DNA of 64,000 nt from Carcharhinus amblyrhynchos (taxonomy: Eukaryota). Under the pieces are notes generated by a model. It saw only the letters and a program-made list of their open reading frames with translations, searched no databases and was not told the origin of the DNA. The stretch covers positions 15,190,001 through 15,254,000 of the forward strand of contig OZ336870.1 of the NCBI GenBank assembly GCA_965287045.1, in the 5' to 3' direction. Within the stretch, counting starts at the first letter, position 1, and each line of letters starts with the position of its first letter. Below, one piece after another: positions 22,809-31,119 of this stretch. The translations under genes were made by a program, and so were the position numbers.

Positions 22809-22990
22809 AAACCATCTGTGGAGAGAGTTGGCACTTGGTGGGAAACTCATGTCTGACAATCACCATCGCAAAAGATAGCTATGATAACGCGAAGCTGTTC
22901 TGTCGGGGTCAGAATGCAGCACTTGCCTCACTTACATCGCAGAAGAAAGTCGAATTTGTCCTCAAGGAATTGCAGATTATGCATGTGTTG
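22809..22990 (+). CDS. ATRN: Attractin exon F (C-type lectin, N-terminal half)
   Basis: ctacag|AA ACC ATC ... GTG TTG|gtgagt; (E)TICGESWHLVGNSCLTITIAKDSYDNAKLFCRGQNAALASLTSQKKVEFVLKELQIMHVL; 182 nt. Confidence 0.95.
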
Positions 22991-24439: not shown

Positions 24440-25045
24440 TTCAAGGTCACTGACAAAAGAACTAAAAACAACATGAGGGAAAACTCTATTTTAGAGTGGG
24501 TGGTGAGGAACTGGAATGCAATGCCAGAGAGTGGTGGAATTAGATTCAGTAGTGGCTTTCGAAACAGAATTGGGCAATTATCTAAGGGAAAATCGTAGGA
24601 GTGGCGCAGTGGTTAGCATTGCTGCCTGACAGCGCCAGGGACTCGGGTTCGATTCCCGGCTTGAGTCACTGTCCGCGTGGAGTTTGCATGTTCTCCCTGT
24701 GTCTGTGTGGGTTTCCTCTGGGTGCTCTGGTTTCCTCCCACATTGCAAAGATGTGTGGGTTAGGTGGATTGGCCATGCTAAATATCCCCTTAGTGTCAGG
24801 GGAGACTAGCTAGGTAAATGCATGGAGTTACAGGTTTAGGGCCTGGGTGGGATTGTTGTCGGTGCAGACTCGATGGGCTGAAAGGCCTCATTCTGCACTG
24901 TAGGGATTCTATTCTGTGAAAAAAAAGTAGAGCTAAGGAAAAAAGGCAGAGAGTGCAACTGGCTGAATTGATCTCTCAGAGATCTAGCAGTAACATCACG
25001 GCTGGATGGTCCCCTTCTGTGGTATAACCATTCGCTGATTGTATG
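24440..25045 (+). mobile_element. Old CR1 3' end interrupted by an HE1 SINE
   Basis: ggaactggaatgcaatgccaga before the SINE and CR1-type tail gatggtccccttctgtggtataaccattc after it. Confidence 0.6.
24600..24915 (+). mobile_element. Full-length HE1-type V-SINE
   Basis: Pol III A box tggcgcagtgg, B box ggttcgattcc, V-domain gtggagtttgcatgttctccctgtgtctgtgtgggtttcctctgggtgctctggtttcctcccac, CR1-like tail gactcgatgggctgaaaggcctc...gattctat. Confidence 0.9.
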
Positions 25046-25875
25046 AAAATATTTCAGATATGACAAACAAATAGGCCATTCTGGCTTTAGCGATGACTGA
25101 AAACCATGATTTATTAGCAATCTGATGACAAGGAAATATCTGGAGAATAGTGACTGTAACCAAGGTTTTAAATTAATGCCTGGGACTAAACGCAAACTAC
25201 CAACCTCCCATACGTGACCCATGCAGAGGGAAACAGCCTGCAGACACGCAAGAAATCTGTGACAAATCTGGGAAGGCCGGAGGCAGGATAAAAAGCTGAA
25301 TTATGGGACAGTTGGTTACAGTGGCTGACCTTGCAGTTGATGTCCTCATTCTATGAATGAATAAAGCAAATAAAGAAATTTTCAAGGGATGATAAACAAA
25401 TTGATTGCAGTAAACTGGGTTGAAATATTGATGTGCAAACCTTACACACCATCTGTGTGGGACGTATTTGTGATGATTCAGAATTCACATGTACATTGCA
25501 AATGGGTAAACCTCCATCTTCGCTTTAAAGCAATCATGGTCAACAAACAAAATAAAAGACAGTATTAAACTAAAATGATTATACAAAAGCAATTAAAAGC
25601 ATTAATCCAGAAGACTGGGAAAATTATATTTTAAAGACAAGAGCTACTAAAACAGGAAGTGCTTACATAGCCTTCCAGAAGGCGTTGGATGTGATCCCAT
25701 GTCGACAATTATCAAAAATTAAAGCACATTGAATTGACATAACCATTTGATATAGCTTGGTATTTAGTCATATGTTCTGACTCCAAGTAGGAATAAAGAG
25801 AATATTCTCTGTACGAAACGGCTTTCTGCATGCATTTGTACTGAGGCCTCAGATTTACACCTGAAATATCAATTA

Positions 25876-26055
25876 TTTATTTGGAATCACAAGCTTTCGG
25901 ATTGCTTCTCCTTCATCAGGTGAGTGCCAGCGCTCACCTGATTAAGGAGCAGTGCTCTGAAAGCTCATGATTCCAAATAAACATGTTGGACTTTAAGCTG
26001 GTGTTGTCAGACTTCTTACTGTGCCCATCCCAGTCCAATGCTGGATTCTCCACGT
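25876..26055. mobile_element. Penelope-like pseudo-LTR with inverted partial copy
   Basis: About 52-nt arm inverted repeat 25876-25981, each arm carrying a hammerhead motif, followed by aataaa..gttggacttt..ctggtgttgt..gacttcttactgtg. Confidence 0.7.
25887..25923 (-). ncRNA. Minimal type I hammerhead ribozyme motif
   Basis: Minus strand UCAC-CUGAUGA-A-GGA-gaagcaa-UCC-GAAAGCUU-GUGA: stem I UCAC/GUGA, intact CUGAUGA and GAAA boxes, 3-bp stem II, palindromic AGCU in place of stem III; activity untested. Confidence 0.6.
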
Positions 26056-26437
26056 TATCAGTTATTTGGATTAAAGACCAGGGAGTTTGTAGATCCAAGT
26101 TTACAATGCAAGGAGACACAGTGAGTTGTGTAGTTGGAAGCTGGAATTTAAAGGTTTACAATAGACAAAGTGAATGGACAAAACAACAAGAATCAAGGAT
26201 GCTGGAAATGCTTTGCCAGTGTCTTCCATTCTTGTTTCAGATTCCAGCATCGGTAGTATTTTGATTAATTGAGTTGGTCATCAGTGTGGGTAATTGCATG
26301 ATCATTTAATCTGGACATAAGAAAGAATAATTAGAATATTTTTTCAAGATGTGAAATTCTGGAATGCATGTCTTTTTCTGTTCCTATTGTAACAAATGTC
26401 ATCCATATTAACGTTGACATAATTGTTAAAATTACAG

Positions 26438-26657
26438 TACAAAACTAGCATAACCCCATGGGTTGGATTACGGAAAATCAATGTTTCATATTGGTGCTGG
26501 GAAGACATGTCACCCTTCACAAACACATCACTACAGTGGATGATGGAAGAGCCAAGTGATGCAGGATTCTGTGGTTATTTGGCAGAACCTAATTATGCTA
26601 GTTTGAAAGCAGCTACCTGTGTCAATCCAGTGAATGGAAGCGTGTGTGAAAGACCGG
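26438..26657 (+). CDS. ATRN: Attractin exon G (C-type lectin, C-terminal half)
   Basis: ttacag|TAC AAA ... AGA CCG G|gtaagt; YKTSITPWVGLRKINVSYWCWEDMSPFTN...EPSDAGFCG...NGSVCERP; 220 nt. Confidence 0.95.
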
Positions 26658-29699: not shown

Positions 29700-30010
29700 G
29701 ACATAGACTTGACAGAGTATCTTAAAGGAGAAAAGTAGGATGGAGAGACCAAGATTTAAAAAGGGAATTCTAGAACTTAGGGTCCTGGCAACTGAGGGCA
29801 TGGCCACTAATAGTGGATTAATTTAAAATTGTGGATGCTTAAGAGCAGAATTAGGAGACGTGCAGCTATCTGAGGATGGTAATGCTGCAAGAAATTGGGA
29901 GAGGTGAGGCCACTTTCGCTATGAAAGGGAGGCTGAGAATTTTAAAATGGAGGTATTGTTTAACTGACTGCCAGTGCAGGTCATTGAGCATGGGTGTAAT
30001 GAATGAATAG
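29700..30010 (-). mobile_element. L2-like LINE fragment
   Basis: Reverse complement resembles the L2-like 3' region at 42230-42600. Confidence 0.55.
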
Positions 30011-31119
30011 GACTCCTATTTATTTGGGATAAGGAATTTTCTCCTTGCTTATTAATGGATGTCAGATAAACTGTTTGATGTGTTGGAGAGGGATTGAGAA
30101 GTGTTGGTGAGATAAAGCTGGATGTTGTCGAGATACAAATGGAAATCAACATTCCTTTGGATGATGTCTCCATCCAAACGGGTCTATAGGTTCCCCCTCA
30201 TCTACTTGGTAGTTACAACCTGAACATGCCCATGAGATTTCACAACCATTGGTTTTAGTTTTATCTGTTGCGGTGCTGTGCTTTTTTTTTAAAGTTACAA
30301 TACCAACTGACTTCTTGCAAAAAAAAATTCAGAAATTCCAGTCAACTGACATTTCAGGTATGCTGCATTTTTTTTATAGAACTATAGCTACTAAATGTCA
30401 ATATACCTCAGCACGTATTTGCTGAAAATGTCACAAAGCAATTTTAATGGCTGAAAGACAGTGAAATTGCAGGGCTGTACTCGGGTAGCTTTATGCACAG
30501 AATTTGATGAGAATGGCTTTCAAAGTTTTGGCACGTGAACACTTTCTTGAGAGATGTGGGAACTTGGCAAAGAAGCAGGAAATTATAGGCTGGTCAGAAG
30601 AAAGACTTGTTTGAGCTATGAATTCATACATGCAAGCTTTAAGTTTTCAATACAAAGTGCAGGTGTGCAGTAGAAATTGTCACTGTCAGTGCAGTTTTTA
30701 GCTTGATGTGTGCAGGCTGTATTATAGGCATTCCATTGGACGTAGGGAGAAATGGCAATGAAATTGAAGGCTGATGAAGGCTTAATATGCAAGACACCCT
30801 CTGTATGATGTATTGTTGCTATTATTAACATCAATCAAAAGGTATTATTTTAAAATCAGAACTGTAAAATGCATTTTCCTTTCCTTCAAAAAAATGCAAA
30901 AATGACAAAATCAAAACCTGAGAACAACCAGAATAATGGAAATAATAGCACTGAGGATGAGGATGACGCTGACATCTGTGCATGGCTTTTCAAAATACAG
31001 GGCTTTGATTAAAAACAAATTTGCCTCATTATGGAAGAGATTAATGACAGAAGCTGTTGGACAATTTATAAATTTTAAAACCCCTTTGGACCTGGTCATT
31101 GTGATCCAAGAAAAAAGCT

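Follow-up and report, generated by a model that had tools for sequence, protein, structure and literature searches.

The question raised by this locus is why an intron of the attractin gene (ATRN) holds two hammerhead ribozyme motifs back to back, and whether the damage in the copy that is transcribed with the gene was selected. The original prediction read the copy in ATRN sense as a hammerhead that could cut the pre-mRNA and as the one that had been knocked out, noting that a single case cannot tell selection from chance. The most likely reading of our data, to which we give a probability of about 0.88, is one old insertion event that left two 3'-end stubs, arranged head to head, of a high-copy Penelope-like element (PLE) of the endonuclease-bearing kind, the whole now being an inert fossil in neutral decay.

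Two damaged hammerhead motifs in an attractin intron

Within the window (the whole stretch of DNA analysed, 64 kb), an inverted repeat occupies 25876-25927 and 25930-25981. Its 52 nt arms are 83% complementary (they differ at 9/52 positions), it measures 106 nt in total, and its computed fold reaches -64.8 kcal/mol (z -11.5), with 0/200 shuffles equally good. The short hammerhead motif pattern has only two matches in the window, one in each arm, against 0.00 expected by chance; repeat search, fold and the two 37-nt motifs bear out the palindrome as it was first described. The insertion itself is wider than the palindrome. It forms one unit of ~190 bp (25867-26067), in which the plus arm extends beyond the palindrome to about 26055, and it lies between the copies of a 12-bp direct repeat that are mismatched at a single position (26061), where two other organisms have A, as in the left copy. 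The features are as follows:

25867..25878, plus strand: target-site duplication, left copy, 12 bp, overlapping the last 3 nt of the inverted arm
25876..25926, minus strand: short inverted PLE arm, tail-less, ending at an AATAAA box (repeat and profile match)
25887..25923, minus strand: minimal type I hammerhead motif with intact core boxes, a stem II of 3 pairs and a CUU triplet
25927..25930, unstranded: junction between the 5' ends of the arms, 4 nt
25931..26055, plus strand: sense PLE arm with hammerhead, AATAAA (25976-25981) and tail (about 26024-26055)
25934..25970, plus strand: minimal hammerhead motif with G8 to U (25943), C11.1 to U (25958), a loop II change (25953) and G1.1 to A (25967)
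26056..26067, plus strand: target-site duplication, right copy
26438..26657, plus strand: attractin (ATRN) coding exon, downstream of the insertion (exon match)

The exon at 26438-26657 (+) is 93% identical to shark attractin and the match to the preceding ATRN exon ends near 22990, so that the palindrome is intronic and its plus arm is sense. The plus-arm cleavage site lies 471 nt upstream of the exon, which agrees with the predicted placement in an ATRN intron some 470 nt upstream of an exon. By exon matches, the gene spans G000 C1:15078451-15400206. About 90 kb upstream of it on the same strand, a second set of attractin-like exon matches (G000:C1:14929722-14991020 (+), 60-84% identity) may represent a partial tandem duplicate or a paralogue. 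Read in host sense, the antisense arm also resembles a consensus-like 5' splice donor (25917-25925, +), and such a site is kept in 14/40 antisense full arms of the family. Two further repeats lie nearby. The region at about 24600-24910 (+), where Rfam gives only a weak T-loop-like match (24644-24658), is presumably a tRNA-derived, SINE-like repeat, and about 26192-26279 holds a short fragment of another high-copy repeat with very high contig depth in all four runs of other organisms.

Both motifs carry similar damage. Position G8 of the plus arm is T (25943), the sole core change there, which deprives it of the intact core of an active hammerhead, and a C-A mismatch in stem I adjoins the cleavage site (25967); the mutated core G and weakened stem I noted at the outset were therefore read correctly. 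Altogether this motif has four changes, namely G8U and three of CpG type (25958, 25953, 25967). A subfamily origin of G8U was ruled out, as it occurs in 1/77 full arms, the window plus arm itself. The minus arm had been called intact. This holds for its core boxes and fails for stem II, which has 3 changes relative to the commonest family form and 3/5 pairs left, short of the stable stem II and accessible fold of an active hammerhead; the motif also has a CUU triplet. Both arms fail our strict structural filter. Forcing the hammerhead fold in a 206 nt context would cost a computed 35-43 kcal/mol (42.8 for the sense arm, 35.4 for the antisense arm); the earlier suggestion that the long hairpin masks both motifs is supported as a prediction, and both damaged copies are predicted to be locked in it. 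A search with hammerhead models had been proposed as a check. Rfam matched no hammerhead at this locus at E up to 10, and its blank is uninformative because a core-intact family copy was likewise missed; hits to bantam, IRES and tmRNA in the window were far below threshold.

Parent element and formation of the inverted pair

The 131-nt 3' end belongs to a high-copy repeat (875 first-look candidates, 40 of them scored), longer copies of which run upstream through a non-coding stretch into the end of an ORF. The frame of one such copy (L046) matches RVT_1 (E 6e-8), and its homologues carry PF00078 and PF26215. Plain Pfam scans did not call GIY-YIG. GIY-YIG half-motifs with two cysteines between them are visible in the frames of L041 and L046, and residues 740-881 of the homologue P0125 agree with GIY-YIG clusters in both features and structure (TM 0.84-0.88); a PDB sequence search with the parent homologue gave 0 hits. 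Before the endonuclease, L041 and P0125 show a CX4CxxC linker, which fits the CX2-5CxxC criterion given for the Neptune and Nematis clades in PMC8557442 and points to a parent element of putative Neptune/Nematis type. Reverse transcriptase, GIY-YIG domain, an inverted 5'-truncated copy placed head to head, a one-sided tail of 30-40 bp and a short target-site duplication are all found, as in an endonuclease-bearing PLE. Pieces of the same ORF also occur in the annotated shark isoforms P0123 and P0127-P0130 (NOXP20-like, a cytochrome P450, septin 5a, XRCC5 and PPP1R12A-like), where they may be either exonised fragments or annotation artefacts.

Comparison of the motifs across the family confirmed minimal type I hammerheads of PLE origin with a palindromic stem III, the palindrome being present in 59/77 family arms. 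Counted as sequences and not as independent events, the stem II pairs are kept in 75/77 (10.1-11.1), 69/77 (10.2) and 73/77 (10.3) arms, with both G-C and A-U types. Since stem II is kept across subfamilies with both pair types, the source elements kept a hammerhead.

The layout of the locus was compared with that of other copies in introns of genes whose strand was taken from exon matches (ATRN, an ATRNL1-like gene and laminin-G genes). The laminin-G genes were sampled on C12 (+), C14 (-), C11 (+) and C2 (-) with inferred single-gene spans, and in four of the six or more genes the host strand was deduced from same-strand laminin-G exon matches, not annotation. A profile search of the first 1.664 Mb gave 171 hits, of which 168 passed the cut-off of E up to 1e-3, with 120 arms in 60 head-to-head pairs and no tail-to-tail pairs. 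With 200 kb added (1.864 Mb in total), 192 arms were found, 134 of them in 67 head-to-head pairs. Only one arm carries a tail in 61/67 pairs, and 20/67 are joined at the 5' edge of the hammerhead like the window pair. Direct repeats of at least 10 nt flank 35/60 pairs, while shuffled pairings average 0.97. Rough scaling to the genome, for which long introns may be atypical, gives about 200,000 insertions and about 30,000-31,000 back-to-back pairs. The inverted copy, one-sided tail, duplication and TATA/initiator motifs have been described for PLEs (PMC8557442; PMC3846280). The locus is ordinary in a layout already published for these elements, and of little note by itself, as similar stubs probably number in the tens of thousands; supplementary alignments of PMC4209133 or of a 2026 preprint (bioRxiv 10.64898/2026.07.22.740005) may already include motifs from sharks.

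The 5' ends of the arms bear on how such a pair arises. Among arms with the 5' box, 51/100 begin 3-10 nt upstream of C3, and the next three 8-nt bins hold 7, 2 and 1; in a second set, selected for resemblance to the arm in the window, 25/58 begin there and the next bins hold 1, 1 and 2. Both window arms begin 7 nt upstream of C3. A TATA-like box begins 37-38 nt upstream of C3 in 38/45 long copies (picked by that motif), which places the peak 28-34 nt behind the box at fixed spacing. As a rule, transcripts begin about 30 nt downstream of where a TATA box starts. No pile-up of 5' ends was seen at the cleavage site, where the 8-position bin holds 9/192 arms and its neighbours 12, 11, 10, 4 and 14. 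The peak hints at run-off copying from the start of an uncleaved RNA. An internal promoter has been mapped in Drosophila Penelope (PMC2377424), and in vitro the Poseidon element of Anolis (PAc) has both strands cut and extended from sense RNA, with two reverse transcriptase start sites flanking the tail and no need for ribozyme cleavage (PMC11167929).

A tentative scheme, which we would place somewhat below even odds, is that of twin run-off cDNAs: the PLE transcript would start about 6-8 nt upstream of the core, under control of a TATA box, and two reverse transcriptases, each primed at one of the nicked strands, would copy the uncleaved sense RNA. As we infer for the window insertion within the preferred reading, the PLE nuclease would have nicked both strands about 12 bp apart, the reverse transcriptase would have extended both ends from the known pair of internal start sites, one giving a tail and the other none, and the two cDNAs would have been joined at their far ends. 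The ribozymes would stand back to back because copying of each cDNA continued up to the 5' end of an uncleaved transcript starting just upstream of the hammerhead. The best signature of the run-off step, an added cap-derived G at 5' junctions, is lacking, since the unpaired arms have no excess of it (6/17 vs 5.3 expected; 3/9 vs 2.3 expected). A first count of 8/14 (p=0.02) vanished in the unpaired arms under a matched null, and in paired arms the G-rich strand of the partner confounds the excess.

Alternatively, the palindrome could stem from an antisense template that folded back for self-priming, or from a longer palindrome that later shrank, a route that we consider possible and on the doubtful side, and that would alter how the feature formed, not what it is. 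Self-priming from palindromic junctions was argued in PMC3846280 (Arkhipova's proposal), many pair junctions overlap by a few bases of microhomology, and the arms of a pair resemble each other more closely than non-partners do (score 0.74 vs 0.52; the partner is the best match in 8/12). However, 17 arms of the intron set and 9 of the search set begin at the peak without having a close partner, and therefore the peak needs no partner; its fixed distance from the TATA-like box and the in vitro extension of both cut strands from sense RNA also speak against this route. Concerning the outer end of the short arm, it terminates earlier than in most tail-less arms (6/62 tail-less paired arms end as early or at most 12 profile positions off). 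The target sequence right of the insertion (26062-26070) equals the outer end of that arm (25876-25884) over 9 nt. Microhomology over these 9 nt may explain why the arm ends at AATAAA, or the early end could be a later deletion.

The sharp 5' breakpoint peak at a promoter-like site is one of the two useful results of this work. If the peak marks where transcription starts, shark genomes contain an extensive fossil record of how PLEs build inverted arms and of the purpose of their hammerheads. If the twin run-off scheme is true, the stubs map the start site of the element, the template is made without the ribozyme, and a sense template is favoured over antisense self-priming.

Core integrity in sense and antisense arms

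The selective explanation holds that the sense hammerhead cuts ATRN pre-mRNA, that selection fixed G8U and that intronic sense copies are purged or broken. In its favour, the G8 change is the only core change and falls in the sense arm, G8C abolishes cleavage in a PLE hammerhead (PMC11167929), and an efficient engineered hammerhead in a zebrafish intron reduces mRNA up to 20-fold (PMC11856399). The strand comparison was made on arms spanning the whole motif, that is, on 84/190 arms outside the window, the other 106 being truncated or too diverged. The 190 arms divide into 92 sense and 98 antisense.

For the first set, the core was intact in 16/36 sense vs 21/39 antisense arms (p=0.49, odds ratio 0.69 (0.25-1.87)), with 0.72 core changes per arm on each strand. 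The CpG across C11.1-G12 provided an internal control, as its decay yields either the lethal G12-to-A or the mild C11.1-to-U; the ratio of the two is 14:18 in sense and 17:13 in antisense arms. Two non-significant leans in this set favoured selection: a post hoc strict filter left 1/36 sense vs 6/39 antisense arms (p=0.11), and discordant pairs ran 4 to 1 toward a broken sense arm (p=0.375). A new set of 200 kb (plus-strand genes only), for which the tests were fixed beforehand, reversed both, with cores intact in 6/6 sense vs 0/3 antisense arms and 3/6 vs 0/3 passing the strict filter. Pooled, the core is intact in 22/42 sense vs 21/42 antisense arms (p=1.0), 4/42 vs 6/42 arms pass the strict filter, discordant pairs stand at 4 to 2, and core changes per arm are 0.62 in sense and 0.76 in antisense. 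Transcription-linked A-to-G asymmetry, a possible confounder, was not seen in the non-core block of the sampled arms. Strong strand bias is excluded by this sample, and a weak one would be compatible with its size.

The anticipated strand bias in core mutations among intronic copies was not seen in the sampled introns (1.864 Mb, 84 arms). Because about half of the arms are intact, neutral decay is expected to leave a broken sense arm with an intact antisense arm in ~25% of pairs. The ATRN pre-mRNA itself contains 8 arms, 3 of them core-intact sense arms. One of them (L063:2821 (+), at G000:C1:15266821) is a core-intact sense hammerhead in an ATRN intron with a 5-pair stem II (G-U at 10.1-11.1) and a partner that lacks the hammerhead part, and would suit a cleavage assay better than the window locus. 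On these grounds, selective knock-out of the sense copy is not supported. Published behaviour of such ribozymes also speaks against it, as a single minimal hammerhead gave no in vitro cleavage and dimers little (PMC4209133), and the anole PLE hammerhead needed the element's protein (PMC11167929). Additionally, in the ATRN pre-mRNA the antisense arm would be transcribed first and is predicted to pair with the sense arm. By this prediction, the hammerhead would have been unable to fold even before G8 mutated, which would leave little for selection to act on. We consider selection on the sense copy very unlikely. Depletion of retrozyme copies from introns was reported in Xenopus (bioRxiv 10.64898/2026.07.22.740005), in parts of the preprint that contain no strand test. 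By title or abstract opening, in a literature of incomplete coverage, we found no published sense/antisense core test and no breakpoint peak at a PLE start site; the null reported here comes from a first test, on the scale of a sample, of whether introns lose ribozymes with a strand bias.

The insertion is old. In four other organisms (A-D), contigs lead out of unique flanking sequence into the element, which places the insertion at the same site in each. Organism C differs by about 3% in the flanks, but at 1/144 bases over both motifs, and therefore most of the decay is older than that split; its single difference lies within 25927-25978, a span that includes the G8U site, 25943. The low count is within chance. 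Co-option of the hairpin as an editing substrate, small-RNA precursor or splice or polyadenylation modulator of ATRN, to which one might ascribe its fixation in at least 5 organisms, a minus arm that is unchanged in organisms C and D, the near identity of C over both motifs and the donor-like site and AATAAA read in sense, is the least probable reading of all and hardly credible, as the counts observed agree with chance, which predicts about 1.5 and 3-4 differences, the arms have already diverged from each other, about 31,000 similar palindromes are expected genome-wide by the same rough scaling, and the sole Rfam hit, to a miRNA hairpin, stays below threshold (27 of 61 bits).

Comparison with known systems

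The closest published layout is that of Pen2a_Av of Adineta (PMC3846280; Fig. 2 of PMC8557442), which shares the head-to-head inverted ends, the one-sided tail, the short target-site duplication and the TATA/initiator-like pLTR motifs. It differs in that the window arms are ORF-less stubs, 51 and 125 nt long, the shorter of which ends at AATAAA. As for the ribozymes, the metazoan PLE minimal type I hammerheads of PMC4209133 have the same core boxes, extra base between 9 and 10.1, G10.1-C11.1 pair, short stem I and palindromic 15.2-16.2. Dual motifs close together on opposite strands are also noted there, although at a spacing of 100-700 bp versus 10 nt in the window, where both motifs are decayed. 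Non-LTR retrozymes (bioRxiv 10.64898/2026.07.22.740005) likewise place PLE-derived type I hammerheads in short non-coding units, introns included. These are direct tandem repeats, whereas the window holds only two arms on opposite strands, an inverted pair that gives no same-strand dimer. Finally, PAc (PMC11167929) belongs to the Penelope/Poseidon clade, while the parent of the window element has the Neptune/Nematis-type CX4CxxC. PAc resembles it in its two internal reverse transcriptase start sites, which yield tailed and tail-less ends, in the cutting and extension of both strands, and in a main template of uncleaved RNA, as we infer for the window element.
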